A stretch of 64,000 nucleotides of DNA from Dehalococcoidales bacterium. Its GTDB lineage: Bacteria > Chloroflexota > Dehalococcoidia > Dehalococcoidales > G020351185. The position numbers were made by a program, and so were the translations under genes. Positions 43,325 through 61,985 of this stretch are shown piece after piece. Location of the stretch: contig CAXXST010000002.1 in assembly GCA_963674855.2 (NCBI GenBank), positions 558,887 to 622,886 on the forward strand. Direction: 5' to 3'. Under the pieces are notes generated by a model. It ran no database searches, was not told the DNA's origin, and saw only the letters and a program-made list of their open reading frames with translations. Numbering within the stretch: position 1 is the first letter of the stretch; each line of letters opens with the position of its first letter.

Positions 43325-44317
43325 CTATTCAATAATATTATCTATTACGTCCTGATAGCCGCTTTCCAGCAAGGCTATTGCCTGCAACAGAATTGGTTTA
43401 AGCGAATCCGGCGCTTCATCCAGCAAGCTGCGCAGCCTGGCTGAATTGCTGTTGCCGTTTTCAAACATCAGATTCAGGAATTCGGTTACATCTTCAACTT
43501 CGCCACCTTCGGCTGTTGCGAAGTCGCCCAGAGATACATAAGGCGGCGGGCTGCCGACGATAACATCCGGCGGAATTGGTGTTGTTGGTGTTGGGGTTAT
43601 AGGGTCAGGCCTCTCCCCAGTTACTATTGGAGGCGGGAGTTTTACCGTGCCGCCGGCAATTGTTGTTACGCATAAATCATATTGTTCAGTTGCATTAGAT
43701 ACTGTTTTTTGAGCGTCCTCACTGGTAGAAATAGATTCCCATTTATGTTCCGATGTAAGGTCGCCTATCATAACCAGTTGTTCGCCTAATCGGTTTGTGG
43801 CGGCTTCGGCAAGTTCTGCATTGCCAGCTTCCGCCATGTGTATAATCTCTTCCACGCGCCTGTCTGAGAATTGTGAATACAGCTTTGCCTTGCCGATATC
43901 TGAAAAAGTGAGGTTTATCCGCACTTGCTCTACCGCCAGCTTGACGGAATAGAGGGGGCTGTCCGGCATACTGGAAGAGGCGGCGGCTACAAGGCTGCCG
44001 CTTGCGATAACCATAACCAGAACGGCGGTTAAAGCTGTTGTCGCAAAACGGAAACGCCGCAGCAGGAAGGGGCGCTTTTTGGCAGTAAAGGTATCGTTGA
44101 GTTCAGTATAAAACTGGTTTCTGGCCCTGGCTTTGAATTCAGGGCGCGGTATAAGGCTGTCGCCAGTTTGCTTGGCGCTCAAAGCGGTTATCAGCAGGGG
44201 TTTAAGCTCATCGGCGTGCTGAGGATATGCGGCAAGGCAGTTTTCTATAGACTCGCCGTTAAAAAGCAGCCTTTGCAGGCAGTCTTCAAAAATGTCTTTA
44301 ATTTCTTTTTCAGCCAT
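43325..44317 (-). CDS. Putative membrane-anchored anti-sigma factor
   Basis: Start overlaps the sigma-factor stop (TAATG). Single transmembrane helix (ATTALTAVLVMVIASGSLVAAA), a helical extracytoplasmic domain and a Pro-rich stretch. Confidence 0.5.
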   Translation of the reverse strand: MAEKEIKDIFEDCLQRLLFNGESIENCLAAYPQHADELKPLLITALSAKQTGDSLIPRPEFKARARNQFYTELNDTFTAKKRPFLLRRFRFATTALTAVLVMVIASGSLVAAASSSMPDSPLYSVKLAVEQVRINLTFSDIGKAKLYSQFSDRRVEEIIHMAEAGNAELAEAATNRLGEQLVMIGDLTSEHKWESISTSEDAQKTVSNATEQYDLCVTTIAGGTVKLPPPIVTGERPDPITPTPTTPIPPDVIVGSPPPYVSLGDFATAEGGEVEDVTEFLNLMFENGNSNSARLRSLLDEAPDSLKPILLQAIALLESGYQDVIDNIIE

Positions 44318-44856
44318 TATGCTTCACCGCAAACCATTATTTTTCTAAGCGCCAGAATGGCGCTGTGCTGAAGGGCTTTTACAGCCCCCTCGCTTTTACC
44401 CATAATCCTGGCAACCTGGGCGATGGGCAGTTCTCCATTGAAACGCAGCAGGATAACCTCCTGTTGCGCCGCCGTCAGTTCTTTGGTAGCTATCATAAGC
44501 TGTTCAATGTCCATCTTTTTTTCAGTTGTGCTGTGCGGATTATCACCGGAAGCCATAAAAGACTCGTTCAGTGTAATAGCCGGTTGCCGCGTCTTTTTTC
44601 TCAGGTAATCCACCACCTGGTTATGGGCTATGCGAAACAGCCAGGCGGAAAATGGCGAACCTTTCCATTTATACGAAGAAATGGAGTGAAGGGCTTTAAC
44701 AAAGACCTGTTGTGTCATATCTTCAGCCTCAACTCTATTCCCTATTTTAAGGGCAATATAACGATAGATTTTATCGAAATACTCCTCATATAATTCGGCA
44801 AATGCCTCCTGGTCGTGCTGCTGAGCGCGCTGCACAAGGCTCTGCTCATCTTGCAC
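44317..44856 (-). CDS. ECF-type RNA polymerase sigma-70 factor
   Basis: Region 2 (FAELYEEYFDKIYRYIA..DMTQQVFVKA..FSAWLFRIAHNQVVDYLRK) and region 4 (LTAAQQEVILLRF..IAQVARIMGKSEGAVKAL). Confidence 0.85.
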   Translation of the reverse strand: MQDEQSLVQRAQQHDQEAFAELYEEYFDKIYRYIALKIGNRVEAEDMTQQVFVKALHSISSYKWKGSPFSAWLFRIAHNQVVDYLRKKTRQPAITLNESFMASGDNPHSTTEKKMDIEQLMIATKELTAAQQEVILLRFNGELPIAQVARIMGKSEGAVKALQHSAILALRKIMVCGEA

Positions 44857-45437: not shown

Positions 45438-46112
45438 GTGGCTAAAACAAAGGTTATGATAATAGACGAGCAGGCATTTTTCAGGGCTGGCGTAAGACAG
45501 GCTTTATCGCAACAGGAAAATATAGAAGTGCTGGAATGCGATCCGAACAACGACACCATCGGCGCTATAGAAGCCAGCCTGCCGGATGTAACCCTGCTGG
45601 GTTCTGATTTGGCGACTCATAGCGGGCTTGACCTGGGGCGTAAGATTGCCAGGAATTTTCCTAATACCAGGGTTATAATACTTAGCCCCGAACCCAATGA
45701 CGAAGACCTTTTTGAAGTTATAAGGAGCGCAGCCGTTGCCTGTCTGCGTAAGAACAGCTCTCCGGAAGAACTTCTTGAAACGGTAAACAGGGCGGCTCAT
45801 GGTGAATACCCGATAAATGAAACTGTTATGACCAGGCCTACGGTGGCAAAACACGTTTTGGAACAGTTCAAGGATATGGAAAAGCTGGGAGATAAGATGG
45901 AAGCAGTGGTGGCGCCGTTAACCCAGCGGGAAACGCAGATATTAAACTATATTGCCGACGGCAATACAAATAAACAGATTGCGCGCATATTAAGCATAAG
46001 CGAGCAGACAATAAAAAACCATGTCAGCGCTATTCTTAGAAAACTTAATGCCAATGATAGGGCGCATGCCGTTGTACTGGCGATAAGGCGCGGCTGGATT
46101 TCGGTGGATTAA
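45438..46112 (+). CDS. NarL/LuxR-family response regulator with atypical receiver
   Basis: C-terminal LuxR HTH (LTQRETQILNYIADGNTNKQIARILSISEQTIKNHVSAILRKL). The receiver has LLGSDL where the phospho-acceptor LLD is expected. Confidence 0.75.
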   Translation: MAKTKVMIIDEQAFFRAGVRQALSQQENIEVLECDPNNDTIGAIEASLPDVTLLGSDLATHSGLDLGRKIARNFPNTRVIILSPEPNDEDLFEVIRSAAVACLRKNSSPEELLETVNRAAHGEYPINETVMTRPTVAKHVLEQFKDMEKLGDKMEAVVAPLTQRETQILNYIADGNTNKQIARILSISEQTIKNHVSAILRKLNANDRAHAVVLAIRRGWISVD

Positions 46113-46131: not shown

Positions 46132-48498
46132 ATGCAAGAGGGTCTAAGAATGACACCAGGTGAAATCGGACAGGCAGAATCCGGGAAAAAAGTGGAGAAC
46201 AGGGTTTTAAGGTATCTTGAAAGCCAGGGATACCATGTGAGCATTGGCGCACAGCGTCAGGGCAAATCCGGGATTATGCATATATTTGACATGCTGGCGG
46301 AACATGACGATGGAATAACCACCAAGATTATGGCTATCTGTATTGCCGAAGGTGGTAACAAAAAGGAAGAAGCCAAAGCCATTTTCAATTTTGCCAACAA
46401 GGCGTATGATGCCGGCATAAAAGACAGAATACTTATCGCTGTGCCGCGGGTAAGCCCGGAAACAAAGCAGATTGCCGGCATACAGCGCATAAAGGTTGTT
46501 GACGAAGAAAAAATTGAATCACTTATTGTACAGATAAAAGAACAGGCGATAAACACCGGCAAAGCATTTACTTTTGAAACAAAAACGCAACTGGTTGAAT
46601 CGCTTACCAATCTTGGCTATGAAGTTGAAGAAAGAGCAAAGATAAAGGGGCGCTCCGGGATAGAATATGAATACGATATATTAGCTCGTGGCAACGGCAG
46701 CCGCATCGGTCATGTGCTGGGAGTGGATATTATGAGTGGTGGAGACAAGATAGGATTGGAAAAAGTGTCCCTTTATGATACCAAAGCATATGATACATCA
46801 ATTGATGATAAGGTGATTGCCCTTATGAATGCTGAGCTGACGCTTGAAGCCAGGCAGTTTGTGCAGCACCAGGGGATAAAGATACTTGAACTGGGCAAAA
46901 CACATGCCAGTGAAGGGGAGGATAAGGCAGAAGAAGGTAAAGTTGGGGAAAATGGTGGAGAAGGGAAAACAGATACAAAGGAAGAAAAGAAGGTAAAAAG
47001 GCTTCTGAGAAAAGAAGTGAAAACTGAAGCAGTGCAGCTAATACCAGAGGTGCTTGCCAGGAGATATAACGCCATACCGATGACAATAAGCGGCAAGACG
47101 CTGGAAGTGGCGATGGCAGACCCAACCGATATTCTTGCACTGGAAGCCTTTGCAATACAAAGCAAAATGCGTATCAAGCCGATAGCCGGTGACGCAAAAG
47201 AAATCAGGGACGCCATTGATGCCAGCTATAAAGGCTATGGAGAAATTGAGAAAAAGATATCAAATATTGCTATCGGTAGTGATATAACCGATGAAATGAC
47301 GGCGCTGGACGCCGCTATAGATGCGCCGCTGGCGCAAGCCCTTAACCTTATAATAGATGAAGCTGTAAAAGCGCGTGCGTCAGATGTTCACATAGAGCCG
47401 GAAGAAAGCCGCCTGAGGGTGCGCTATCGTATTGATGGCACACTACAGGATATGATGTCATTGCCTATGGATATCCACGCCGCAATAGTTTCACGCATAA
47501 AAATATTATCCAACATGAATATAGCTGACCACCACCGGCCCCAGGACGGGCAGTTTTCAACTGTAGCTAAAGGCAGGGAGATAGATATCAGGGTGGCAAC
47601 AGCGCCTACAGTATATGGTGAAATGGCAGTGTTGCGTTTGCTGGATAAATCAACAGCGGCGATGGATATGTCGGAACTTGGTATGATGGCGGGAAGTAAA
47701 GAAAAATATGAAAAACTGCTTAAGATTCCATATGGAATGATACTTATAAGCGGACCTACAGGCGCTGGTAAAACGACAACGCTATACGCTTCCATTAGTT
47801 CTCTGGATACGATGGGCAGAAATGTTATAACCGTAGAAGATCCGGCAGAATACAGGTTTCCGGATATAAACCAGATTCAGGTAAATCCGCAGGCAGGTAT
47901 AACCTTTGCCAGTGGCTTGCGCTCCATATTGCGTCTTGACCCGGATGTAATACTGGTTGGTGAGATACGTGATGCTGAAACAGCCAATATTGCTGTTCAG
48001 GCGGCTTTAACCGGACATCTGATGCTTTCATCCATTCATGCCAATGATACCGTAGGGGTAATGTTCCGGCTTATTGACCTTGGCGTAGAGCCGTATCTCA
48101 TAGCATCGGCGGTTATCGGTATAGTGGCGCAGCGCATGGTGCGCCGCATTTGCCCGGACTGTATGCAGGAGATTGAAGCTCCGCTGGTAGAGCAGTTGGC
48201 GTATGAAAGGGAAATTGGCGAAAAAAGGAAAAAGTTCGTATATGCCGCCGGTTGTCCCACCTGCGCTTATACCGGCTATATAGGAAGGATAGGTATATTT
48301 GAAATAATGCCTATGAGCGATACCATACGCCGGATGCTTATAAAAGGGTTAGGCTCTGCGGATATCAGAGACCAGGCAATAAAGGAAGGCATGGTAACAA
48401 TGATGGGTGACGGCATGACAAAGGTAAAAGAGGGCATGACGACACCTTCAGAGGTTTTGCGCAGCGCTTATTCTGTTGAATCAGTAGAACAAATGTAG
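46132..48498 (+). CDS. pilB: Type IV pilus assembly ATPase (PilB/GspE family) with two extra N-terminal endonuclease-fold-like modules
   Basis: T2SSE_N-like region (LIPEVLARRYNAIPM..), Walker A GPTGAGKTT, Walker B DPDVILVGEIRD and a tetracysteine CPDC..CPTC. The N-terminal ~290 aa is additional to the usual architecture. Confidence 0.85.
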   Translation: MQEGLRMTPGEIGQAESGKKVENRVLRYLESQGYHVSIGAQRQGKSGIMHIFDMLAEHDDGITTKIMAICIAEGGNKKEEAKAIFNFANKAYDAGIKDRILIAVPRVSPETKQIAGIQRIKVVDEEKIESLIVQIKEQAINTGKAFTFETKTQLVESLTNLGYEVEERAKIKGRSGIEYEYDILARGNGSRIGHVLGVDIMSGGDKIGLEKVSLYDTKAYDTSIDDKVIALMNAELTLEARQFVQHQGIKILELGKTHASEGEDKAEEGKVGENGGEGKTDTKEEKKVKRLLRKEVKTEAVQLIPEVLARRYNAIPMTISGKTLEVAMADPTDILALEAFAIQSKMRIKPIAGDAKEIRDAIDASYKGYGEIEKKISNIAIGSDITDEMTALDAAIDAPLAQALNLIIDEAVKARASDVHIEPEESRLRVRYRIDGTLQDMMSLPMDIHAAIVSRIKILSNMNIADHHRPQDGQFSTVAKGREIDIRVATAPTVYGEMAVLRLLDKSTAAMDMSELGMMAGSKEKYEKLLKIPYGMILISGPTGAGKTTTLYASISSLDTMGRNVITVEDPAEYRFPDINQIQVNPQAGITFASGLRSILRLDPDVILVGEIRDAETANIAVQAALTGHLMLSSIHANDTVGVMFRLIDLGVEPYLIASAVIGIVAQRMVRRICPDCMQEIEAPLVEQLAYEREIGEKRKKFVYAAGCPTCAYTGYIGRIGIFEIMPMSDTIRRMLIKGLGSADIRDQAIKEGMVTMMGDGMTKVKEGMTTPSEVLRSAYSVESVEQM

Positions 48499-48513: not shown

Positions 48514-49722
48514 ATGGATTACTCTTATGTAGCTTATACAAAAGAAAAGAAAATGGTGAAAGGCAAGCTTTCGGCTACCAGTGAAGAAGCTGCCATGAAC
48601 CTGCTTAGCTATGGCGGTTATCAGGTTATAAAAATAAAGCAGTACACACCCATTATAAACCTGGGCAAATTGTTAAATATGTTCAGGCGGGTAAATCAGA
48701 AAGAGACAGTAATGTTTTCGCGCCAGTTGGCGTTGCTTTTGGAATCAGGCACAGATATTGTTGCCTCTCTGGAACTGTTGCAGCATCAGGTAACAAATAA
48801 AATCCTAAAAAAGGCAATAAGTGAGATAGTAGATGACATTCGCAGTGGCAGTTCATTATCGGTGGCATTAAGAAAACACCCTAACGTATTTTCTCAGGTG
48901 TATGCAAAGGCAATTGCGGCTGGCGAAAAAAGCGGTAATCTGGAGGTTGTGCTGAGGCAAATGGCTGGTTTCATGGAAAGAAGCGTGATAACCGAAAAAA
49001 AGATTAAAGGCGCTATGACGTATCCCATTATAGTTGTATTTGTGGCGATAATTGTTGTAGTGGTGATGGTTACATTTATTTTGCCTTCTTTCACTGTGCT
49101 TTATACATCATTTGGCTCTGAACAGCCAACGGCAGTGAAGGTTCTTTTGGGCACGACCGATTGGTTGAAAGCTAACGGAATATATTTATTAGGAGGAGTT
49201 GTTGCCGCGGTTGTTGCCATCGTATTATATTTTCGCACCCCGAACGGTCAATATATGCGGGATAAGATTTTATTGCGAGCTCCCATACTGGGGCGAATTC
49301 TGCAACTGGGCGAACTTTCACGGAGCTGCCGCACCATATCTTTGCTCTTCCATGTCGGTTTGCCCTTGCCGGAAATACTTACCCTGGCGATTCAGGGCAG
49401 CGGCAACAAGGTTATCGCTGAAGCATTCACTGAGGTGCAGCGTGAATTGATAAGGGGTGAGGGATTATCCAAACCGATGTCAAAGAGAAGTGTGTTTCTG
49501 CCGCTTATGGTGCAGATGACAAATGTCGGTGAAGAGACCGGAAATCTGGATAGCACGCTTATAACCGTAGCTGAAAGCTATGAAATGGAAGCTGATGACC
49601 GCACTAGCAGCGCCATAGGCATGATCCAGCCGGTTATAACTGTAGTAATCGGTATAATGGTAGGATTTTTGGCAATGACACTGGTATCAGCTATGTACTC
49701 CGTCTATGGCGGATTGGAATAA
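48514..49722 (+). CDS. pilC: Type IV pilus platform protein (PilC/GspF family)
   Basis: 402 aa with two GspF-type repeats and three transmembrane segments. Follows pilB. Confidence 0.85.
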   Translation: MDYSYVAYTKEKKMVKGKLSATSEEAAMNLLSYGGYQVIKIKQYTPIINLGKLLNMFRRVNQKETVMFSRQLALLLESGTDIVASLELLQHQVTNKILKKAISEIVDDIRSGSSLSVALRKHPNVFSQVYAKAIAAGEKSGNLEVVLRQMAGFMERSVITEKKIKGAMTYPIIVVFVAIIVVVVMVTFILPSFTVLYTSFGSEQPTAVKVLLGTTDWLKANGIYLLGGVVAAVVAIVLYFRTPNGQYMRDKILLRAPILGRILQLGELSRSCRTISLLFHVGLPLPEILTLAIQGSGNKVIAEAFTEVQRELIRGEGLSKPMSKRSVFLPLMVQMTNVGEETGNLDSTLITVAESYEMEADDRTSSAIGMIQPVITVVIGIMVGFLAMTLVSAMYSVYGGLE

Positions 49723-50188
49723 AACAATGTTAAAGGAAATTAAAAAAAGTGAAAGGGGCGTTTCGCTTATAGAAGTGCTTATAGCCTTGGTTATACTTGG
49801 CGTGGTAGCAGTTGGCTTTTTGGCAGCTTTAAACAATTCCGGTAATTCAGTTTCAATGGCTGATGAAAGAGCTACGGCGGAAAGCCTGGCAAGGAGCCAG
49901 CTAGAGTATGCCAGGCAACAGATATATCTGCCGGCGCCCCTTGACGGTGAGACGGAATACCTGAAAGTGGATATGTCTGCTCATCCCAATTACGAAATAA
50001 AAAGTGTAACCCGCAGCGGAAGCGAAGAGGTCAATAATCTGGCTGATGAGGTTATAGCTGTTCCCTGGGACAGCGAAAACAACACTGCGGAAAGCAGTGA
50101 CATAGGTTTACAGAGGATAAAGCTTGTTATCCTGCATAACGGTAATATAGTCTTGATGATGGAAAGCTATAAAACAAACCGTAATTAA
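49706..50188 (+). CDS. Prepilin-type N-terminal cleavage/methylation domain protein (minor pilin)
   Basis: ERG-VSLIEVLIALVILGVVAVGF class III signal. The start is probably the internal Met at 49727. Confidence 0.65.
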   Translation: MADWNKTMLKEIKKSERGVSLIEVLIALVILGVVAVGFLAALNNSGNSVSMADERATAESLARSQLEYARQQIYLPAPLDGETEYLKVDMSAHPNYEIKSVTRSGSEEVNNLADEVIAVPWDSENNTAESSDIGLQRIKLVILHNGNIVLMMESYKTNRN

Positions 50189-50199
50189 AGAGTAGAAAT

Positions 50200-50742
50200 A
50201 TGTTTAATAAATTATTAAAAGTTTTAAGGATAAAACACAATAAGCAGCAGGGCTTCACATTGATAGAGCTGATGGTAGCGCTGGCTGTATCCTCAATTAT
50301 ATTAAGCGGCATTACGGTGACTATATACCAGATAGTCAGTATAAACGCTTTGGCATCAAACAGGATGTATGCAGTTAATCAGGTGCAGAATGCCGGTTAC
50401 TGGATAAGCAATGATGCCGAAATGGCGCATGCCATAGACGTTAATGATGATATCGGCACCCCTGATTTAGAGTTAGTTACCATAGATTGGGTTGACTGGG
50501 ACGGGAATACGCATAAGTCAGTTTATACTCTGGCTGGCGGTATTATAAAACGGTCTTACATTTTAAATCTGGGAACGCCGGTTGAGACGATAATAGCTCA
50601 AAATATTAACCCCTCTACAAGCTGTGTATTAGATGAAACATATTATAAAAGGCTTATTGTAACGCTTTCGGCAACCGTAGGCGGCTTCAAGCCGGTAACG
50701 GTTAACAGGATATATGAAACTATTCCAAGACCAAGTGTATAA
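50200..50742 (+). CDS. Prepilin-type minor pilin (PilW/PulJ-like)
   Basis: QQG-FTLIELMVALAVSSIILSG N-terminal methylation motif. Confidence 0.7.
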   Translation: MFNKLLKVLRIKHNKQQGFTLIELMVALAVSSIILSGITVTIYQIVSINALASNRMYAVNQVQNAGYWISNDAEMAHAIDVNDDIGTPDLELVTIDWVDWDGNTHKSVYTLAGGIIKRSYILNLGTPVETIIAQNINPSTSCVLDETYYKRLIVTLSATVGGFKPVTVNRIYETIPRPSV

Positions 50743-50748
50743 GGGGGA

Positions 50749-53700
50749 GTGGGGAAAATGAAAAGCATATTAAAAAAGATAAAAGACGAAACAGGGCAAG
50801 CATTTATTCTTGTGCTTATATTGCTGGCTGTGGGTGGGGCTATCCTTACGCCGCTGTTATCGCATATGGGGACAGGGATGAAGACCGAAATTCTCTATGA
50901 AGAAAGGGCGGACGAATTTCATTCCGCCGATAGTGGGGTGGAAGACGCACTGTGGCAGATAAAATATGATAACCTGGCAAACAAGTTCACATCGCCGGCA
51001 TACAATCCATATAATTACGACATATTCGGCGGCGGATACGCATATGATACCCCGCTGGACATAAACAGCAGGGATGTGGATGTTACCATAACAAATATAT
51101 GGATACCAAAAATAGACCCGGATCCCGTAGCACAGGGATTTACCAGCGGCAGTATGCAAAGCATTGTAGAGGCGGGTAATATCATAGTAGCCGGTACGAT
51201 AGCCGGGCCGACAACTTACCAGATAAAGATAAGCTATACACCCTTGCCAGGGGAGACTTTGCGTGTATCGGATATTGGTATATGGCTGCCAACCGGTTTT
51301 ACTTATGTAGAAGAGTCAAGCAATCTGGAAGAAAACGAGCTTTTTACATATTATCCCTCAGATGTAGATATAACTTCTCACGCTGGCGGACAGGCTATAA
51401 TCTGGCATTATGATAATCCGGGCATACTTTTCAACAGCCTGCCCGAAGTTGAAACAAGCACAACGCCATGGCTGGCTGAGATAACATTTGAATTTGATGG
51501 ACCGCCGGGAAGGGTTCCGGAAGCGGTTGCATGGATGGTAACCTCGCCGGCCAGCATCAGCGGCGCTGAACAAATACAACCCTTTGCCTGGGATGCCGAT
51601 GTTAAGGTGTTTCTTATAGAATCTACCGCTGGCAGTGTTGATATTGATGCTTATGCAATAAAAAGTGAATTAAGAGAGGTTCAGGGCGCTATAGCCGGGG
51701 ATTACCGCGCGGTTGGTAACAGCCTGATGGCCGCCTCTTGGAATGAAAGATATCGGGATACATTGCTTGACGATAGTTCGGCTACGGTTAGCGATATCCC
51801 CGAAGACGCAAACGTGGCAGCCGCTTATCTATACTGGTCAGCCTGGATGCAGGGTAATATAACGCTGCAGAAAATCGGCGATTCTATATGGGAAGACGAT
51901 TGCGACGAGTTCGGCACATTTACATCTATATGGTCTGACGACTGCTCTGCATATGGTACATATACCCCGGTGTGGTCTGATGACTGCTCTGCATATGGTA
52001 CATATACCTCGGTGTGGTCTGATGACTGCTCAAGCCTGGGGACATGGAATTCAATATGGCAAGAAAACTGCTCAAGCTTTGATGATGCGGCATACACCTG
52101 GAGTGATGGTAGCCAATGGATAATCTATGGCGGTGAATTCAGGGGGCAGGGTGGTGGCATTTCAGGCAGCAGAACGCTGACACTGGCGCAGAATATTGAT
52201 TTAAGCGCCTACGCCGGGCAGACGGTTAATATAAGCTGGGATCAGGATGCCAGTAATCCTGTTGACTGGAATGATTACCTCTACTTCGCTATTTCAAATG
52301 ATGGCGGCGGAAGCTGGAGCAGCGACATGGAAGCCTTCCATGATGATGATCCGCTAAGCCCCTTCATCTATACCATCCCCCAGTCATATCTGACCAGCCA
52401 GTTCCGAATAAGGTATTACTGGGCAGCAGGAAGTTCTAATGAATACTGCTATCTTGATAATATAGGCATATCCGCCCTGGTTAGCAGCAACTGGTCAGCA
52501 GGCAGCCATTGGACAGTAAACGGTGGACAGTTCCAGGGGCAGGGTGGCGGCACCACAGATGACAGGACGCTTACCCGTATAACAGATATAGACTTAAGCG
52601 CCTATGCCGGACAGACAGTAAACATAGGCTGGGACCAGAGTGAATACGGCTATATAGACTGGGATGATTACCTCTACTTCGCTATTTCAAACGATGGCGG
52701 CAGTAGCTGGAGCAGCAATATAGAAGCCTTCCATGATGATAATCCGTCAAGCCCCTTCAGCTATACCATCCCCCAGTCATATCTGACCAGCCAGTTCCGC
52801 ATAAGGTTTTTATGGAGCGCTGATAGCACCAGTGAATACTGCTATATAGATAACATAGAAATAGGCACACTGACGGGTGACTGGTCACCCGGAGCCAACT
52901 GGACTATCTCCAGCGGACAGTTCCAGGGGCAAGGTGGCGGCACCACAGATGACAGAACAGTAACCCGTGTGACGGATATAGATCTAAGCGCCTATTCAGG
53001 ACAGACAGTAAACATAGGCTGGGACCAGAGTGAATACGGCTATATAGACTGGGATGATTACCTTTACTTCGCCATATCCAATGATGGAGGCGGCAGCTGG
53101 AGCAGCAATATAGAAGCCTTCCACGACGATAATCCGTCAAGCCCCTTCAGCTATACCATCCCCCAGTCATATCTGACCAGCCAGTTTCGCATAAGGTTTT
53201 TATGGAGCGCTGATAGCACAAGTAAATACTGCTATATAGATAACATAGGAATAGGCACACTGACGGGTGACTGGTCACCCGGAGCCAACTGGACTATCTC
53301 CAGCGGACAGTTCCAGGGACAGGGTGGCGGAACAACCGATGACAGAACGGTAACACGTATAACGGATATAGACTTAAGCGCCTATGCCGGACAGACGGTA
53401 AACATAGGCTGGGACCAGAGTGAATACGGCTATATAGACTGGGATGATTACCTCTACTTCGCTATATCCAACGATGGCGGCAGCAGCTGGAGCAGCAATA
53501 TAGAAGCCTTCCACGACGATAATCCGTCAAGCCCCTTCAGCTATACCATCCCCCAGTCATATCTGACCAGCCAGTTCCGCATAAGGTTTTTATGGAGCGC
53601 TGATAGCACAAGTGAATACTGCTATATAGATAACATAGAAATAGGCACAATGTCAGGTGACTGGTCACCCGGAGCCAACTGGACTATCTACGGTAGTGAC

Positions 53701-54918
53701 CAGTTTATGGGGCAGGGTGGCGGCACAACTGCCCAGAGAACGCTGACGATGATAACGGATATAGACCTGAGCGCATATTCAGGCAGTTCAGTAGCTATTT
53801 TCTGGAACCAGCGTGAAACAGGATACCTGTGGCCAAGCGAAGGGCTTTACTTTGCCATCTCTGGCAACGGTGGCAGCAGCTGGAGTTCCAATGAAATAGC
53901 CTTTACCGGTGAAATTGGCAGCACGGCGCAGGAGTTCAGCTTTATAATACCGGAGGTTTATCTTACGGAAAACTTCCGCATAAGGTTTTTCACGCAAGAC
54001 AGTGATTCAGGGGATGCGGTCTATATTGATGACCTGGCTATATATGAGATAGAGGAGCCAACGATAGCCGACCCCACCGCCAAATTGTGGATAGACGGCC
54101 AGCAGGTATATTTTGACGGAGATGGCAATCCGGCAGAAGGTAATGACGTTCTAAACGCCGAGCTGATACAGGTAATAGAAAACACCAGTAGTGGTACTCC
54201 GCACGGTTATTCATATTCCTGTAAGCTGGATGTAACTGACCTTATACTGGAATATAGCGCCGAAGTCGGCGGTGGTTACCGTCCAGGCAATGCAGTATAT
54301 ACCGTTGGAGATGTCTTTGGAGATGCCGCCGGTACCGGTACTGTTTCACCTTATGAAGAATGGGCTTATGCCGGCTGGTCGCTGGTAATCATATACACCA
54401 GCCCGGAAACTGCCGGACACCGGATGTACCTTTACGATAATCTGGTCTATTGCGATTCTAGTACCAACCTTGATTTTGACGCAGACGGGCAGCCCGGCGG
54501 TACTATAACCGGTTTCCTGGTGCCGGAAATGATTACCGGCGAAGGACCAACGGATAATGCTGCTAAAATAACCTGCTTTGTTTGTGAGGGGGATGATGAG
54601 TACGACGGTGATTTTATAGCCTTGAATGCGCCCGATAATGATCCGCCTGCAAGCATATCCGATGCCTATAAGCTGTGGGACGGGACAGGCGGCAGTTTGA
54701 ATGATGTATGGAACAGCAGGTCAATCGGGTTAAGCGAAACAGGTGTGGATATAGATACCTTTAACGTAACCTGGGGCAGCGGGCTGATAAGCCCGGGGGA
54801 TACATCCGCCCAGATAGATATGTATACCAATATTGATATCTGGAATTTCATTTACATAATTATGTCCTTCCGCAGTGAAACAGCGACGGGGGGAACAACA
54901 ACCTATCTTATATACTAA
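50749..54918 (+). CDS. Giant PilX-like pilus-associated surface protein with tandem beta-sandwich-like repeats
   Basis: N-terminus ETGQAFILVLILLAVGGAIL resembles PilX N-terminal helices. Five 14-aa WxDDC repeats, five ~130-aa repeats each with an Asp-box (SNDGGSSW), then a ~290-aa unique C-terminus. Confidence 0.7.
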   Translation: MGKMKSILKKIKDETGQAFILVLILLAVGGAILTPLLSHMGTGMKTEILYEERADEFHSADSGVEDALWQIKYDNLANKFTSPAYNPYNYDIFGGGYAYDTPLDINSRDVDVTITNIWIPKIDPDPVAQGFTSGSMQSIVEAGNIIVAGTIAGPTTYQIKISYTPLPGETLRVSDIGIWLPTGFTYVEESSNLEENELFTYYPSDVDITSHAGGQAIIWHYDNPGILFNSLPEVETSTTPWLAEITFEFDGPPGRVPEAVAWMVTSPASISGAEQIQPFAWDADVKVFLIESTAGSVDIDAYAIKSELREVQGAIAGDYRAVGNSLMAASWNERYRDTLLDDSSATVSDIPEDANVAAAYLYWSAWMQGNITLQKIGDSIWEDDCDEFGTFTSIWSDDCSAYGTYTPVWSDDCSAYGTYTSVWSDDCSSLGTWNSIWQENCSSFDDAAYTWSDGSQWIIYGGEFRGQGGGISGSRTLTLAQNIDLSAYAGQTVNISWDQDASNPVDWNDYLYFAISNDGGGSWSSDMEAFHDDDPLSPFIYTIPQSYLTSQFRIRYYWAAGSSNEYCYLDNIGISALVSSNWSAGSHWTVNGGQFQGQGGGTTDDRTLTRITDIDLSAYAGQTVNIGWDQSEYGYIDWDDYLYFAISNDGGSSWSSNIEAFHDDNPSSPFSYTIPQSYLTSQFRIRFLWSADSTSEYCYIDNIEIGTLTGDWSPGANWTISSGQFQGQGGGTTDDRTVTRVTDIDLSAYSGQTVNIGWDQSEYGYIDWDDYLYFAISNDGGGSWSSNIEAFHDDNPSSPFSYTIPQSYLTSQFRIRFLWSADSTSKYCYIDNIGIGTLTGDWSPGANWTISSGQFQGQGGGTTDDRTVTRITDIDLSAYAGQTVNIGWDQSEYGYIDWDDYLYFAISNDGGSSWSSNIEAFHDDNPSSPFSYTIPQSYLTSQFRIRFLWSADSTSEYCYIDNIEIGTMSGDWSPGANWTIYGSDQFMGQGGGTTAQRTLTMITDIDLSAYSGSSVAIFWNQRETGYLWPSEGLYFAISGNGGSSWSSNEIAFTGEIGSTAQEFSFIIPEVYLTENFRIRFFTQDSDSGDAVYIDDLAIYEIEEPTIADPTAKLWIDGQQVYFDGDGNPAEGNDVLNAELIQVIENTSSGTPHGYSYSCKLDVTDLILEYSAEVGGGYRPGNAVYTVGDVFGDAAGTGTVSPYEEWAYAGWSLVIIYTSPETAGHRMYLYDNLVYCDSSTNLDFDADGQPGGTITGFLVPEMITGEGPTDNAAKITCFVCEGDDEYDGDFIALNAPDNDPPASISDAYKLWDGTGGSLNDVWNSRSIGLSETGVDIDTFNVTWGSGLISPGDTSAQIDMYTNIDIWNFIYIIMSFRSETATGGTTTYLIY
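51889..52098 (+). repeat. 42-bp (14-aa) tandem repeat x5, W-(S/E)-(D/E)-(D/N)-C core
   Basis: WEDDCDEFGTFTSI / WSDDCSAYGTYTPV / WSDDCSAYGTYTSV / WSDDCSSLGTWNSI / WQENCSSFDDAAYT. Confidence 0.85.
52099..54054 (+). repeat. ~390-bp (130-aa) tandem repeat x5 inside the giant ORF
   Basis: The repeat-initial Trp codon falls at 52099, 52492, 52882, 53272 and 53662. Copies 2-4 are nearly identical; copies 1 and 5 are diverged. Confidence 0.9.
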
Positions 54919-54961
54919 AAAGAGAGACAAGGTTTTATAAATAACTGAACGGGAGAAAAAT

Positions 54962-56536
54962 ATGAAGCTAAGCAAGATATCATGGCTGGTTATAGGCATT
55001 GGGATATTTGTGGTTGCAACAGTTGTCATTTACTTTATGTATCAGAGTAACGTAAATGAAAGAAAGGCAGCCGAAGAAGCCAAAGCCGAAGTTGAAGAAG
55101 TGCAACTGCCGGAATTGGAAGGGAAGAAACAAATCCTGGAAGACGAAATGGCGCAAAAAGAGGCTGAAATAGCGCAGTGGCAAGCCGAAATAGATCAACT
55201 TGTTGAGCAACTGAACCAGGTAGAACAGGAAGTTGGTCAGGCGCAGCAGGGTTTTCCCGTCTCAATAGACGGTATTGATTATAGCGAAACCTTGTTTGCC
55301 TTTGCTGATGCCTCTGGCATATATATAACCGGGCTGGATTCATCAGAACCGTCTCATCAAGACATGAACGAAAATACATATACGGTTACTTTGTTCAACC
55401 TGAGGATGCAGGGAGAGATAGCCGATATGCTTGAATTCCTGAAAATGATAGTAGATGATGAAGAATTCAAGACGGCTGTTATAGAGCCGGTAAGTCTGTC
55501 TGTGCCGGCTATATTGACCAATGAGCAGATAGATGAAATTAGAAATGCCCTTGAAAAGGAAATGATGGCAGATGCCTTGCAGGAAATTACAACACAACAG
55601 ATATTGGATTTCGTATTGGAAGCTATTGCAGAAGTAACAGGGGTGGACATTGAAACGCGGGTGGCTGAAGATATGGCTGAAACCATAAAAAACCGGATGC
55701 AGGAATCACTGGCAGGTGATTACAATGAATTACTATCCGGAGAGCTGGCAGATGTAATAATTGAATATATAACCAATTCAGTGGTGGGCGAAGTAATAAA
55801 GCCACTGGCGGAGGATATTGCGGCGCTCATAACACCAATGGAAGAAGTTCAAATAAGCACAATGATGAAAGACTGGTCGCCCGGCGCCAACTGGACAATC
55901 TATAACGGGCAGTTCCATGGAAAAGGCGGGGGAGGCATTGCTGAAAGGACGCTCACCCAAAACATTGATATAGATCTGAGTGCTAATGTTGGACAGGAAG
56001 TAACAATAAGCTGGGAGCAGGGTGAATCCGGACATATGGAATCTGGCGATATTTTGTACTTCGCCATTTCCAATGACGGAGGAATAACCTGGAGCGATAA
56101 CGAAGAAGCCTTCAGCGACGATAGCCAGTATGCCCCATTCAGCTATATCGTCCCCCAGTCATATCTTACAAACCAGTTCCGCATAAGGTTTTACTGGGCT
56201 GCAGATGACACCAGTGAATACTGTTTAGTGGAAAACATACAGATAAGCATACAGGAAGGCGGAGACGGTTTCCTGTATAATGCTTTGGTAGAGCTGCTGG
56301 GAGAAGATATTGCGGCGCTGCTGGGCGAACAAATAGCCAACTCAATGCCGGGAGATATAAACAGTATATTGACTGAGTTTATCGCCATGCTGGTGGAAGC
56401 CAAGATGGAAAGCTCGGTTTCCGGGCCAATAGATGCGGCGATAGAAGGATTAGTGGAACAACAGGTTGAAATTGCACAGATGCCAGAAGTTGATATAGAA
56501 CTGGCTGTCTATGCATACCAGGAAGAGGGGGAATAG
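54962..56536 (+). CDS. PilO-like bitopic coiled-coil protein carrying an inserted copy of the 130-aa repeat domain
   Basis: N-terminal transmembrane helix (ISWLVIGIGIFVVATVVIYF), a coiled coil, and a PilO-like segment (YTVTLFNLRMQGEIADMLEFLKMI). The inserted domain DWSPGANWTIYNGQF..ISNDGGITW..FRIRFYW spans 55871-56262. Confidence 0.55.
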   Translation: MKLSKISWLVIGIGIFVVATVVIYFMYQSNVNERKAAEEAKAEVEEVQLPELEGKKQILEDEMAQKEAEIAQWQAEIDQLVEQLNQVEQEVGQAQQGFPVSIDGIDYSETLFAFADASGIYITGLDSSEPSHQDMNENTYTVTLFNLRMQGEIADMLEFLKMIVDDEEFKTAVIEPVSLSVPAILTNEQIDEIRNALEKEMMADALQEITTQQILDFVLEAIAEVTGVDIETRVAEDMAETIKNRMQESLAGDYNELLSGELADVIIEYITNSVVGEVIKPLAEDIAALITPMEEVQISTMMKDWSPGANWTIYNGQFHGKGGGGIAERTLTQNIDIDLSANVGQEVTISWEQGESGHMESGDILYFAISNDGGITWSDNEEAFSDDSQYAPFSYIVPQSYLTNQFRIRFYWAADDTSEYCLVENIQISIQEGGDGFLYNALVELLGEDIAALLGEQIANSMPGDINSILTEFIAMLVEAKMESSVSGPIDAAIEGLVEQQVEIAQMPEVDIELAVYAYQEEGE

Positions 56537-56538
56537 AG

Positions 56539-58047
56539 ATGGCTAATAAAGTAACAATATATATAGAAGACACAGATATAAAGCTTCTGGTTACCAGCGG
56601 GAAAAAGGTTGATAAATGGGCTAGCTTATTATTGGAGCCAAGCCTTGTTCGGGATGGCGTTATTGTTGACGAGGAACAAGTCGCCGAAAGCGTAAAAAAC
56701 CTGCTGAAACTGGGCGGAGTAAGCCAGAAAAAGGTTACTGTGGGCTTAAGCGGTTTGAATTCAATATTCCGCATTATTACACTGCCTGAAATATCACAAT
56801 CGTTGCTTCCGGAAGCGGTAATGAATGAAGCGCGCCGGGTAATACCTGTTCCTCTGGATCAGGTGTATGTGTCATACCAGCAGATACCATCTTCAAAAGG
56901 AGAAATACGCCTTTTCCTGGTGGCTCATCCGCGAAACTCAACAGATGTGCTTGTAAAAACAATGATAAAGGCTGGTCTTAAGCCGGAAATATTGGATTTG
57001 GCGCCTCTGGCGCTGGCGCGTTGCAGTAATGAAAGCCGCTCTATAATCATAAACTCATGGCAGACATATATAGACATTATAATTATGAGCGATAATCTGC
57101 CACAGGTGATTCGCAGTATGTCATTGCCAACAGAAGCAGTGGCGGTTGAGGAAAAGCTGCCGTTTATCGCAGAGGAACTTGCCAGGACGGTTGCCTTTTA
57201 TAATTCAAGTAATCCGGCGAATCAGCTGGATGCGGAAGTGCCGCTTTTCGTCTGCGGTGATCTGGCAGATGTGCCGGATAGCTGGGAATCACTGGTAGAA
57301 AGATCAAAACACAGCGTATCTACGATGGTGCCGCCGATGGAATACCCGGAAACCTTCAGCCCGTACAGCTATATGGTAAATATAGGGCTGGCGCTTAAAG
57401 GGCAGCTACCTGGTGGGGCGGAAAACCATTATTCTATAATAGATTACAATGCCATGCCGGAAGTGTACCGGCCGGTAGGTATAAGCATGGTGCGGATATT
57501 GACACCGGTGGCTATAGTGATCGGTCTATGCGCTTTGGCTTGGGGAGGATTGCTTGTTAAGGACGTCGCTGATGAAACAGCCAGGATAAAAAACCAAAAA
57601 ATGGTCCTTGAATCACAGGCAATTATGTTGAATGGGCAGGTGATGGGGTTAATCAATGAGATTAATGATGTTGATGCTATAATTGAAGCATACCCGGATC
57701 AGGTGGCGCAAATAACAGGACAGATACAAACAATGAAGAACATTGATATAAGATTTGAAGAAACGCTAGCCGGGTTAAGCGAAGGACTTAACAAGACGGA
57801 TGCAGATATAAACGAGGTTATAGATTTGCTGCCGGCGATTATAAAGCTTAACGAGATGGATTATAGCAATGATGAAATAAGAATAATGGGAACAACACAG
57901 CAAGAAGATGATATCATCGCTTACGCTAAGACACTGGAAAACAGCGCATACTTCAGTGAAGTTACTATATTGTCAATAAACGAAACATACAGACAGGAAA
58001 ATGAGCAGGAATACAAGATGTACAATTTTGAATTCCTCGTAAAATAA
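56539..58047 (+). CDS. pilM: PilM-PilN fusion (actin-like ATPase fold plus transmembrane/coiled-coil PilN-like half)
   Basis: The N-terminal ~300 aa is PilM-like. A transmembrane helix (ILTPVAIVIGLCALAWGGLLV) follows, then a coiled-coil/ferredoxin-like tail. Confidence 0.7.
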   Translation: MANKVTIYIEDTDIKLLVTSGKKVDKWASLLLEPSLVRDGVIVDEEQVAESVKNLLKLGGVSQKKVTVGLSGLNSIFRIITLPEISQSLLPEAVMNEARRVIPVPLDQVYVSYQQIPSSKGEIRLFLVAHPRNSTDVLVKTMIKAGLKPEILDLAPLALARCSNESRSIIINSWQTYIDIIIMSDNLPQVIRSMSLPTEAVAVEEKLPFIAEELARTVAFYNSSNPANQLDAEVPLFVCGDLADVPDSWESLVERSKHSVSTMVPPMEYPETFSPYSYMVNIGLALKGQLPGGAENHYSIIDYNAMPEVYRPVGISMVRILTPVAIVIGLCALAWGGLLVKDVADETARIKNQKMVLESQAIMLNGQVMGLINEINDVDAIIEAYPDQVAQITGQIQTMKNIDIRFEETLAGLSEGLNKTDADINEVIDLLPAIIKLNEMDYSNDEIRIMGTTQQEDDIIAYAKTLENSAYFSEVTILSINETYRQENEQEYKMYNFEFLVK

Positions 58048-58062
58048 AGGTGGTGGCAGGTT

Positions 58063-59139
58063 ATGGATGTAATTGAATTATTACGCACATCAAAAGAAAT
58101 GGGGGCATCAGATTTACACCTGGTGGTCGCCAGCCCGCCCCTGATACGGGTTAACGGATCATTGGTATCTGTAAACGGTGCAGGTCCACTGACGGCAACA
58201 GAAATAAATGAGGGTTTTTTGCAGATTACCAGTCCGGAAGAAAGGGATAGTTTCCACCGGCAAATGGAGCTTGACTTTGGTTATATACTTTCCGGCGTGG
58301 GGCACTTTCGCTGTAATGCCGCCATGCAGCGCGGCGCTATAAGTCTGGCAATCCGATTGTTGCCGCCAAAGATACCGACAGTAGAAGAACTTGAGCTGCC
58401 GCAAATCTGCAAGCAGCTGATTATGAAACACAGGGGTTTAATAATAGTTACGGGTCCAACCGGCAGCGGTAAAACCACCACGCTGGCGGCAATGATACAA
58501 CATTTAAATACAAATGACAGCCGCCATATACTTACAATAGAAGACCCTATAGAATATGTGCATCCTTCAATAAACTGCGCTATAACGCAACGTGAGCTGC
58601 ATAGCGATACGCATTCCTTTGACGAGGCTCTGAGGCATGCGCTGCGGCAGGACCCGGACGTAATACTGGTAGGTGAGATGAGGGATCTGGAAACGGCGGC
58701 ATCTGTGCTGAGCCTGGCGGAAACCGGGCATCTAATTATAAGCACCGGTCATGCCCCCAGCGCCCCGCAGGCAATGGAAAGGATAATAGACCTGTTTCCG
58801 CTTCACGAGCGTAATCTGGCGCAGTCACGCCTTGCTTCATTGCTTATCGGCGCTCTGTGCCAGACATTGGTACCAAGAGCCGATGGTAGCGGCAGGATAG
58901 CCGCTGTTGAAATAATGATGGCTAATTCAGCCGTCAGGAACCTGCTGCGTGAAGGTAAAACATACCAGTTGCCCAATGCCATAAAGACGCATCGGGATGA
59001 GGGCATGATCTCACTGGACGAAGTGCTGGTTGAGCTCTACCTGAAGGGATTAATTACCGGGGAATCAGTGGTTAGCTATTGTAATAACCGCCAGGAAGTG
59101 GAAAGGCTGATTGGTAAGCTGGAAGTGCAGGGAGTCTAG
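58063..59139 (+). CDS. pilT: Type IV pilus retraction ATPase
   Basis: GASDLHLVVASPPLIRVNG, Walker A GPTGSGKTTT, Walker B DPDVILVGEMRD and GHLIISTGH. Confidence 0.85.
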   Translation: MDVIELLRTSKEMGASDLHLVVASPPLIRVNGSLVSVNGAGPLTATEINEGFLQITSPEERDSFHRQMELDFGYILSGVGHFRCNAAMQRGAISLAIRLLPPKIPTVEELELPQICKQLIMKHRGLIIVTGPTGSGKTTTLAAMIQHLNTNDSRHILTIEDPIEYVHPSINCAITQRELHSDTHSFDEALRHALRQDPDVILVGEMRDLETAASVLSLAETGHLIISTGHAPSAPQAMERIIDLFPLHERNLAQSRLASLLIGALCQTLVPRADGSGRIAAVEIMMANSAVRNLLREGKTYQLPNAIKTHRDEGMISLDEVLVELYLKGLITGESVVSYCNNRQEVERLIGKLEVQGV

Positions 59140-59234: not shown

Positions 59235-59639
59235 CTATTCATTAATGGTTACTACGCCGTTAGTGGCGATGTCATACGATTGCTTAAGTGGGTACTTGCC
59301 ACCCATCAGGTAATCACGCAGACTGCCGGTGCTGGGGTTGCCATCATCCAGTTTAGCCCTGACAAGCAGGATATCTGCTTCTTCCTGAACATCGTCATAT
59401 ACAGTTACCAGTTCATCGCTATCGTTGTCAAACATAAGAGAGATAACCGCTGCCTGAAAGTTATCGCGTTCGGTGTTTCTGGCTTCGTCATCTCCTTCGT
59501 TCATAAACCTTACAACGTTTGGTATGACGATGCCGGCTAATAAGCCGAGTATGGCAATAATTACCAGGATCTCAATAAGGGTGAAGCCCTTTTCTCCGAA
59601 AGTAAGTTGCCTTGGGAAAGCCTTTATACTATCAAACAT
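59235..59639 (-). CDS. pilA: Type IV pilin
   Basis: GEKG-FTLIEILVIIAILGLLAGIVIPN class III signal. 134 aa. Confidence 0.8.
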   Translation of the reverse strand: MFDSIKAFPRQLTFGEKGFTLIEILVIIAILGLLAGIVIPNVVRFMNEGDDEARNTERDNFQAAVISLMFDNDSDELVTVYDDVQEEADILLVRAKLDDGNPSTGSLRDYLMGGKYPLKQSYDIATNGVVTINE

Positions 59640-59780
59640 AAATCATCCTTCATAAGCCATCCTTAAATAAAGTAATACCTTTTGAAAGGCATAAAAAACT
59701 GCAATAACCAGAATTGCAACAGCTATATAAAGCTATACTGCATGCCGGCTAACTTAACACAGAGCCTAAAAACACAGAGC

Positions 59781-59817
59781 AACTCACCGGCGGGTAAACT
59801 TCATCTGCCGGTGAGTT
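59781..59817 (-). terminator. Terminator-like hairpin after the second pilin gene
   Basis: aactcaccggc / gccggtgagtt 11-bp stem with a 15-nt loop. On the minus strand it is followed by GCTCTGTGTTTTT. Confidence 0.45.
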
Positions 59818-59879
59818 ACTTCTATATACAAATTTCTGTAAAATAAATATATTTAATTACATAGATACTATCGTTATTC

Positions 59880-60261
59880 TTATTCCGCAGTTACCGAACC
59901 GTCCGTGGCAATGGTATATGATTGTGTAAGTGGATATTCGCCACCCATAAGATAGGTAGTCAGGTTGTCGCTACCGCCTGTTGCCATAACAGCCTGGCAT
60001 TCTGTCTCTGAATCTACGCCGGTGTGGCTGCTGGTTAAGGATGTGGCTCTATTAGCAAAAAGCAGCGCTGTTACGGCTGTCTGGACGTTAGCCAGTTCTG
60101 TTTGTGCGGCTTCCTCATCACCTTCACCCATAAAGCGGGTTTACGTTGGGGATGACAATGGCTGCCAGTGTTCCCAGAATCATAACCACCACCAGTAACT
60201 CGATAAGCGTGAAGCCCTTCTCTCCGTAACGGAAACTTTTCATTAACCTCTTCATCTTCAT
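59880..60261 (-). pseudogene. Second type IV pilin gene, interrupted by a 1-nt frameshift
   Basis: GGAGG precedes the ATG at 60261: MKMKRLMKSFRYGEKG-FTLIELLVVVMILGTLAAIVIPNV, then a stop at 60124. Deleting one T of the TTT at 60140-60142 joins it to the 59880..60131 ORF (..PNVTRFMGEGDEE..), parallel to the paralog ..PNVVRFMNEGDDE.. Confidence 0.7.
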
Positions 60262-60445
60262 TATTTCCTCCTTTCCTTATTTAATAGATTAAATAAATAA
60301 TGATAAGTGATATAAGGTATGATTTAGTTAGTTTTGATTATATTAGGGATAAGACTTAAGGTCAATAGCTTAAAAGTCATATATGGAATAGTACTTACGT
60401 ACCTTGTTAAAAACAGGCTGTTTACAGAGGGGGATATGGTGTAGA

Positions 60446-61806: not shown

Positions 61807-61985
61807 TAGCCTTCATAATGCGCCTCAACGTATATGATAATGCGAAGTATAATCGCAGAAAAAGGCGAAGTCAATATGCCGCAAAGTAACTTTAATACAA
61901 TATAGATAACAATAATGCGGCGATATATGGCGCATAAAAAAAGCGCTATTGACTGAAGAGGTAAAAAAGGGCAAAATAGGTATCT

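Follow-up and report, generated by a model that had tools for sequence, protein, structure and literature searches.

The described systems closest to the one reported here are the PilB/GspE/MshE ATPases, in which accessory or regulatory domains are found at the N-terminus of the motor, and the TackOD1 proteins. TackOD1 (arCOG06883) has been described as an output domain of thaumarchaeal response regulators that occurs in thaumarchaeal type IV pilus loci (PMC5847659, PMC4858521) and carries PriA-like zinc ribbons (PMC5847659). Its presence in archaeal pilus loci was noted from 2016 on, and in 2018 its function was still called 'obscure'; the words 'endonuclease' and 'nuclease' are absent from the text of both papers (PMC4858521, PMC5847659). 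We analysed a stretch of 64,000 nucleotides (nt) from a Dehalococcoidales bacterium (contig CAXXST010000002.1, positions 558,887 to 622,886 of the forward strand), referred to below as the window, which encodes a type IV pilus cluster. Its PilB, the pilus extension ATPase, begins with two copies of a module of ~115 amino acids (aa) that we name MOD, and a neighbouring gene encodes a TackOD1 protein that ends in two further copies. The closest relatives of the window are metagenome-assembled genomes (MAGs) of Dehalococcoidales, with a PilB core 84% identical.

The ATPase core, the MshEN/T2SSE_N-type domain and the operon partners (PilC, PilM-N, PilT, pilins and PilD) are those of the PilB/GspE/MshE systems. 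The difference lies in the extra domains, which are predicted to have the PD-(D/E)xK fold and are neither GSPII repeats nor MshEN domains that bind cyclic di-GMP (c-di-GMP). With the archaeal TackOD1 proteins the locus has in common a TackOD1 protein encoded among pilus genes, and REC-TackOD1 architectures recur in Chloroflexota. Here, however, one or two MODs follow TackOD1 in nearly all the relatives examined, including those of Nitrososphaerales, and it is MOD without TackOD1 that appears to have moved onto PilB.

Domain organisation of PilB

In the PilB open reading frame (ORF), Pfam T2SSE (PF00437) matched aa 396-777 with 422.6 bits (cutoff 24.9) and MshEN matched aa 293-367 with 53.8 bits (cutoff 23.1), covering profile positions 10-85 of 90. 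The ATPase motifs are intact: Walker A (GPTGAGKT at 541), Walker B (DPDVILVGEIR at 603), the His box (TGHLMLSSIH at 627) and a tetracysteine motif made up of CPDC at 674 and CPTC at 708. With NCBIfam the C-terminal ~490 aa group with GspE and PilB, and the equivalog cutoffs of both are not reached (515.2 against 675.65 for type IV-A PilB and 527.8 against 630.25 for GspE), a difference from the curated members of the two families. We therefore regard the ATPase as a member of the PilB/GspE family and not as a curated equivalog. The c-di-GMP-binding motif of MshEN, which we take to be RLGxx(L/V/I)(L/V/I)xxG(L/V/I)(L/V/I)xxxxLxxxLxxQ, had no match in the 788 aa when this form was searched as a strict or a loose regular expression, and in this the protein differs from the MshE-type ATPases.

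The first-pass annotation of this DNA, made from the letters alone, had claimed that ~290 aa precede the usual N-terminal domain of PilB and that they consist of two copies of a module followed by a K/E/G-rich linker. This was borne out, as MshEN begins at aa 293, the two modules (aa ~18-132 and ~145-260) are ~115 aa long with an identity of 26% (E 4e-10), and E, K and G are abundant in residues 259-292. The same annotation had read the modules as PD-(D/E)xK (Mrr-cat-like) cores in which E-x-K is not conserved, and both points agree with the profile and structure comparisons that follow.

Fold and degenerate active site of MOD

The Pfam family Mrr_cat (PF04471) matched the first PilB module (aa 17-131) with 21.9 bits, barely above the gathering cutoff of 21. 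When copies from the window and its relatives were taken together, 14 of 17 matched Mrr_cat at E <=0.1, the best at 1.2e-8, and three of the 17 matched NA-iREase1 (PF22722; best 1.9e-6), one relative being above the cutoff of that family. Neither the PilB of the window nor the 138-aa ORF 60446..60862 matched NA-iREase1 at E <=1. No Pfam or NCBIfam model dedicated to MOD was found among the library matches. Searching the PDB chain sequences with the MOD profile gave chance matches to the N-terminal helix alone (E 0.5-1) and was uninformative, so that a comparison of folds was required.

An AlphaFold model of PilB aa 1-268, computed with 9 aligned sequences, had a mean pLDDT (predicted local distance difference test) of 78, with ~85 inside each module and values below 50 for residues 257-268. 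Each module follows the order alpha-beta-beta-beta-alpha-beta-alpha-beta, which contains the alpha-beta-beta-beta-alpha-beta core. With Foldseek the best match in the PDB was AF1548 (1y88; E 8.7e-6), and the Cdn1/Can2 nuclease domains, NucS/EndoMS, the R2 endonuclease domain, AspBHI and Bax1 matched likewise with a probability of about 1.0. APOBEC3G and PRPS chains were also among the matches, at low probability and with a root-mean-square deviation of about 20 A. Since the confident matches are all PD-(D/E)xK proteins, the assignment stands, and the PilB repeats are predicted to adopt a PD-(D/E)xK, Mrr_cat-like fold.

The catalytic site was compared in an alignment of 187 MOD domains, whose profile positions are used below unless stated otherwise. 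The catalytic Asp of strand 2 (position 39; D53 and D182 in the PilB of the window) is kept in 169 of the 187 domains (90%). In strand 3, where (D/E/Q)xK would be expected, positions 53-58 read h-A-I-[G/D]-I-x, and Lys does not figure in the seven most frequent residues of position 58, the +2 site of (D/E)xK; the window has 'MAICIAEGG' in MOD1 and 'LGVDIMSGG' in MOD2. As the Lys of (D/E)xK is missing, nuclease activity of MOD is unlikely. A different set of residues is near-invariant, namely L15, G19, Y20, G30, [K/R]31, S32, G33, H36, D39, A42 and D45-D46-G47, followed in the C-terminal half by F72, K75-A-Y-D78, G80, K84 and P90. MOD1 of PilB retains the family-conserved residues (GKSG, H50, D53, DDG, KAYD and DR, in PilB numbering), whereas in the second PilB module H36 has given way to Y (19 of 20), and neither the DDG turn nor P90 is left. 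The family is mildly acidic, with a median isoelectric point (pI) of 5.6 and a net charge of -2.

MOD thus has the fold of Mrr_cat and AF1548 and a detectable sequence homology to them, the common elements being 'GY-V', 'G..G...D-I-[IL]-A' and a C-terminal 'A..fA....I.V'. It differs in the family-wide absence of (D/E/Q)xK, in the other residue set that is conserved and in its context, which is signalling and pilus biogenesis and not restriction. The NACHT-associated NA-iREase1 is also Mrr-like, is described as inactive and is used as a non-catalytic module; MOD, by contrast, has no NACHT/STAND partner and another genomic context, and the modules of the window are unmatched by that family. Judged by its residues, MOD can be placed among the Mrr-like domains as a branch of its own that is catalytically degenerate.

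The neighbouring TackOD1-MOD-MOD gene

The first-pass annotation had also seen the module twice more in 60446..61806 (minus strand), and this holds with one copy intact and the other split over three frames. The 138-aa ORF 60446..60862 has 40-43% identity to each of the two PilB modules (E 3e-26 and 5e-25), and the 260 nt between it and the TackOD1 ORF hold the further copy. Comparison by tblastn with intact 453-aa homologues gave a single TackOD1-MOD-MOD gene with three interruptions. That this gene is frame-disrupted in the assembly and that its N-terminal half is TackOD1 goes beyond what had been annotated.

TackOD1 (PF18551) was matched with 132.7 bits against a cutoff of 32 (1.5e-38). Across 19 sequences, eight Cys and one His of its CxxC/HxxC motifs are invariant and two more Cys nearly so. 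The AlphaFold model of the window TackOD1 (pLDDT 91) has a winged-helix-like N-terminus followed by a region rich in beta-strands that holds the Cys motifs. Foldseek gave weak MarR/AbfR2/TFIIE-like matches over ~75 residues, and no significant structural neighbour of the whole model in the PDB.

Within ~1.3 kb (59880..61142) there are four frame changes; three interrupt the TackOD1 gene and the fourth the second pilin gene. The long ORFs near them are intact. These changes are likely to be assembly indels, real decay being the alternative. Similar gene splits were seen in MAGs named 'MFD...' (loci L012, L021, L055, L191, L197, L226 and L236). In the second pilin gene (59880..60261, minus strand) the N-terminal part (MKMKRLMKSFRYGEKGFTLIELLVV...) runs to a stop near 60126, and ORF 59880..60131 encodes the C-terminal part.

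Cluster layouts in Dehalococcoidia and probable transfer of the MOD pair

Three scans were made with one genome per GTDB species, and the loci were classified with our own hidden Markov models. The labels of almost all MOD-encoding loci are Dehalococcoidia, Dehalococcoidales or Chloroflexota, and a few loci are labelled otherwise. With the MOD-MOD query, TackOD1-MOD-MOD was encoded in 73 of 80 species-level loci, most of them with pilus genes within 10 kb. The fusion to PilB seemed rare in the first scan (6 of the 80 loci); this rarity was rejected as an artefact of the DNA pattern used in that scan, since two more scans raised the number of distinct PilB ORFs with MOD to 78, of which 67 have two MODs, while in 11 a single one was detected. 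One of them is in a complete Dehalogenimonas chromosome (L251). A NarL/LuxR-type response regulator is found upstream of most MOD-bearing PilBs.

Three layouts were distinguished. In layout A pilB directly follows the TackOD1-MOD-MOD gene on the same strand, and PilB is plain in 24 of 24 loci. Layout B, that of the window, has the order response regulator, MOD-bearing PilB, further pilus genes, PilT, pilins, TackOD1-MOD-MOD and PilD; wherever both genes are on one contig and TackOD1-MOD-MOD is distal, PilB carries MOD (13 of 13: the window, L089, L029/L190, L035/L179, L038/L177, L040/L175, L036/L095, L028/L127, L020/L215, L049/L214, L055/L197, L063/L209 and L074/L228). Layout C combines the response regulator with a plain PilB (L101-L104, L238, L244, L246, L247 and L249), and in one of these loci, L102, no TackOD1-MOD-MOD is present at the usual site between the pilins and pilD. 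The MOD-MOD coding sequence thus stands directly before PilB either as the tail of the upstream gene or as part of PilB, in a mutually exclusive way, which points to a fusion of interacting partners.

The first MOD (m1) of PilB scores higher against the profile of the TackOD1 m1 and the second (m2) against that of m2, which indicates that the pair moved as a unit. The MOD-MOD cassette therefore appears to have been transferred whole onto the N-terminus of PilB in one lineage of Dehalococcoidales, with the TackOD1-MOD-MOD gene retained in the cluster. A PilB subclade (L175, L177-L180) has a single MOD that looks as if m1 and m2 had recombined in register at the 'FDILA' they share.

In L004 (9365-12328) and L006 (2178-4900) the stop-to-stop ORFs of TackOD1-MOD-MOD and pilB share a reading frame; a single stop codon separates the two genes in L004, where one point mutation would fuse them. 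Two loci labelled Deltaproteobacteria (L105, L189) and a TackOD1-MOD-MOD locus labelled 'candidatus Brocadiaceae' (L053) have nevertheless a cluster of the Dehalococcoidales type, and their labels are probably binning or labelling errors.

MOD in other proteins

A word-indexed protein search gave few relatives (15, then 38, mostly fragments), and an exhaustive HMMER profile search at E <=1e-3 matched 992 proteins. Among the best 150 of these 992 the architectures were TackOD1-MOD-MOD, response regulators of the type REC-...-TackOD1-MOD(-MOD), TackOD1-MOD of about 320 aa, REC-GerE-MOD, MOD-MOD-PilB, MOD-KaiC and MOD alone. In Dehalococcoidia, in other Chloroflexota and also in WOR-3 and Nitrososphaerales, the domain that usually follows TackOD1 at the C-terminus is MOD. 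TackOD1-MOD forms the output half of many response regulators of other Chloroflexota, and TackOD1 proteins with a single MOD occur in WOR-3, where NCBI names them 'restriction endonuclease', and in Nitrososphaerales, with the name 'hypothetical'. REC-GerE-MOD is encoded by complete genes, one of which comes after the C-terminus of a histidine kinase.

Six contexts outside Dehalococcoidia were inspected. In four of them a chitin- or cellulose-synthase-like gene of glycosyltransferase family 2 (GT2) adjoins the MOD gene; the MOD proteins are TackOD1-MOD of Nitrososphaerales, REC-TackOD1-MOD of a Chloroflexota MAG, TackOD1-MOD of a JGI metagenome contig and a MOD-KaiC with a stop that overlaps the GT2 start (loci L084 8001-10452, L173 8001-11069, L174 8001-10382 and L169 7001-9654). 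The neighbours in the remaining two are a ParA/BcsQ-like gene and lspA. A universal link between TackOD1-MOD and pili was considered and rejected, as the copies of WOR-3, Nitrososphaerales and other Chloroflexota lie elsewhere.

Two other protein forms were observed. In a PilB variant seen in P0067 and P0195-P0199 (1099-1114 aa; 1111 aa for the PilBs of the P0067 cluster), ~375 residues without a Pfam match lie between MOD-MOD and MshEN, and P0110 (1210 aa) has nine partial MOD-like stretches at a spacing of ~105 aa.

Possible role of the MOD pair

The MOD-MOD-PilB arrangement is real, is common in Dehalococcoidales and is undescribed in the papers searched: full-text literature searches returned no paper on a nuclease-fold domain on PilB and, for TackOD1, the two papers cited above only. 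The first-pass annotation had allowed that the architecture might prove common and already annotated; common it is, with the 78 distinct MOD-bearing PilBs of Dehalococcoidales, and no paper describing it was found. In the databases the MOD-bearing PilBs are named 'general secretion pathway protein E' and the TackOD1-MOD relatives 'restriction endonuclease' or 'hypothetical'. It is most likely that the arrangement serves regulation rather than DNA cutting or DNA uptake. The regulatory partner suggested in the first-pass annotation fits the comparative genomics, and its alternative suggestion of DNA uptake found no support in view of the median pI, the presence of MOD on response regulators and on a KaiC-like ATPase and its place beside glycosyltransferase genes.

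We tentatively propose, with a confidence that falls just short of even, that the MOD pair is a regulatory docking module, and not a nuclease, which couples the motor to a pathway of TackOD1 and two-component regulators. Where PilB is plain, contact with it would be made by the MOD-MOD end of the TackOD1 protein, whose gene is the next one upstream. In the lineage of the window this contact may have become covalent, giving the motor a built-in docking and regulatory module that could act on its ATPase activity. Dimerisation is typical of restriction-endonuclease folds, and because it is the norm for this fold the MODs carried by PilB could pair, in the fashion of a dimer, with those of the retained TackOD1 protein. 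Such pairing would couple pilus extension to TackOD1 and two-component signalling. A two-component input to pilus extension is made plausible by TackOD1-MOD on response regulators and MOD on NarL-type regulators, and it would agree with the response regulator that immediately precedes pilB in layouts B and C.

The rule of 24 of 24 against 13 of 13 loci supports the docking proposal, as does L102, which has no TackOD1-MOD-MOD at the usual site. Further support comes from the fold, the degenerate active site and the shared origin of the MOD pairs of PilB and TackOD1, from the earlier placing of TackOD1 in thaumarchaeal pilus loci (PMC5847659, PMC4858521), from the signalling context of MOD, fused to REC-TackOD1 and REC-GerE response regulators and to a KaiC-like ATPase, and from the asymmetry in PilB, where m1 is conserved and m2 eroded and one subclade has a single MOD. 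No c-di-GMP input is obvious either, the MshEN motif in the form given above not having been found. Several points weigh against the proposal. Adjacency and fusion show a functional link and not necessarily a physical contact. Plain-PilB genomes have no MOD on PilB, so that pairing of MODs with MODs is not the whole story. The TackOD1-MOD genes examined outside Dehalococcoidia are not in pilus loci. In the AlphaFold model (predicted template modelling score, pTM, 0.59) the two modules have no fixed relative position, and the conserved polar residues S32, H36, D39, K75, D78 and K84 could mark a site for a ligand or a metal.

These residues are the starting point of another explanation, in which MOD senses a small ligand, for example a nucleotide second messenger, and the copies on PilB and TackOD1 bind the same signal independently, in a role like that of the PilZ and MshEN receptors of c-di-GMP for pilus ATPases and glycosyltransferases. 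The polar set G-[KR]-S-G-x-x-H...D...K-A-Y-D...K is near-invariant in the 187 domains while the nuclease motif is gone, and the MshEN of the window PilB is without the c-di-GMP motif in the form given above. Receptors of c-di-GMP such as PilZ and MshEN classically act on pilus ATPases and on processive GT2 synthases, and genes of processive-type GT2 synthases adjoin MOD or TackOD1-MOD in the four contexts described above, as PilB does here. However, several conserved residues (GxSG and DDG) may be structural, since the secondary structure of the model and the alignment would put them in hairpin turns, at the two opposite ends of the sheet; m2 of PilB has lost part of the polar constellation, and we know of no ligand for a Mrr_cat-like domain of the MOD type. 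We consider a ligand sensor unlikely. Because the PilB and GT2 targets parallel those of the c-di-GMP receptors, the idea can be widened: MOD, with or without TackOD1, might be an unrecognised and widespread signalling domain of Chloroflexota, WOR-3 and Nitrososphaerales that gates machines for cell-surface polymers (PilB, KaiC-like ATPases and processive GT2 synthases), a functional analogue of PilZ and MshEN, possibly with its own second messenger. In this wide form we hold it to be quite unlikely.

The structural neighbours of MOD are DNA-acting enzymes, TackOD1 has a winged-helix-like start and PriA-like zinc ribbons (PMC5847659), and a tandem pair could mimic a restriction-enzyme dimer clasping DNA, all of which would suit a module that binds DNA without cutting it and tethers the motor or the TackOD1 protein to DNA, for uptake or for control of the transcription of pilus genes. 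Against this stand the mild acidity of MOD, its fusion to a cytoplasmic ATPase not known to handle DNA, its presence on a KaiC-like ATPase and beside glycosyltransferase genes, and the fact that neither comEA nor comEC was identified among the annotated cluster genes; the chance of such a role appears slight. An active nuclease with a relocated catalytic Lys (e.g. K75 or K84), which would make the PilB fusion a hybrid of enzyme and motor, is very improbable. Migration of catalytic residues is known in PD-(D/E)xK enzymes, the Asp of the PD motif is kept in most domains and two Lys/Arg positions are well conserved elsewhere, but the (D/E)xK strand is hydrophobic and Gly-containing family-wide, m2 of PilB has lost further conserved residues, three modules match the inactive NA-iREase1, and the context is signalling and not defence or repair. 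Finally, the frame errors present nearby in the window might suggest that the fusion itself is artefactual, with a separate MOD-MOD gene joined to pilB through mis-assembly or the loss of a stop codon. The MOD(-MOD)-PilB reading frame is found unbroken in 78 distinct genomes of numerous assemblies, one of them the complete Dehalogenimonas chromosome, and the possibility, practically negligible, was rejected.

The architecture is thus common within one order and not a rarity, and its interest lies in exposing an unnamed domain family and a testable partner of TackOD1. The PilB fusion can be seen as a natural 'Rosetta stone', which would mark the pilus extension ATPase as the protein with which the endonuclease-fold domain behind TackOD1 works. 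Regulators of Dehalococcoidia, of WOR-3 and of ammonia-oxidising archaea would then be misnamed by the label 'restriction endonuclease'. Dehalogenimonas, an organohalide-respiring genus that finds use in bioremediation, belongs to Dehalococcoidales, and our literature searches found no paper on the control of pili or attachment in the wall-less cells of this order.

Features of the pilus cluster

The cluster of the window (Table 1) is a complete pilus set that comprises the response regulator, PilB, PilC, minor pilins, PilM-PilN, PilT, pilins, the TackOD1 gene and PilD.

Table 1. Coordinates of PilB, its domains and the other genes of the pilus cluster in the window
Feature	Position	Strand	Basis or remark
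MOD-MOD-PilB, type IV pilus extension ATPase, 788 aa	46132..48498	+	ORF; T2SSE, MshEN, Mrr_cat Pfam matches
MOD1, aa 18-132, degenerate PD-(D/E)xK domain	46183..46527	+	Pfam, self-alignment, AlphaFold, Foldseek, 187-domain profile
MOD2, aa 145-260, second copy, diverged at family-conserved positions	46564..46911	+	self-alignment, AlphaFold, residue comparison
K/E/G-rich low-complexity linker, aa 261-292	46912..47007	+	composition
MshEN/T2SSE_N-type domain, aa 293-367	47008..47232	+	Pfam
T2SSE ATPase core, aa 396-777	47317..48462	+	Pfam, NCBIfam
NarL/LuxR-type response regulator (REC + GerE), 19 nt upstream of pilB	45438..46112	+	cluster annotation
PilC, two minor pilins, 1389-aa and 524-aa proteins, PilM-PilN fusion, PilT	48514..59139	+	cluster annotation
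Two pilin genes, the second (59880..60261) frame-disrupted	59235..60261	-	cluster annotation, frame analysis
TackOD1-MOD-MOD gene, homologues 453 aa	60446..61806	-	interrupted by three frame changes near 61142, 61071, 60976
TackOD1 part: N-terminal winged-helix-like region and Cys-rich beta-strand region with CxxC motifs	61123..61806	-	Pfam 1.5e-38
MOD1 of TackOD1 gene, split over three frames	60871..61194	-	sequence comparison, tblastn
MOD2 of TackOD1 gene, intact, within ORF 60446..60862	60452..60796	-	Mrr_cat 26.2 bits
Prepilin peptidase PilD	61949..62794	+	cluster annotation

The 1389-aa and 524-aa proteins of the operon (50749..56536, plus strand) have no Pfam match, and their position is conserved across the clusters of Dehalococcoidia. 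About 600 nt upstream of the response regulator, a 179-aa ORF on the minus strand was recognised from sequence alone as a putative sigma factor of the extracytoplasmic function (ECF) type, and its stop overlaps the start of a 330-aa ORF, both lying in 43325..44856.

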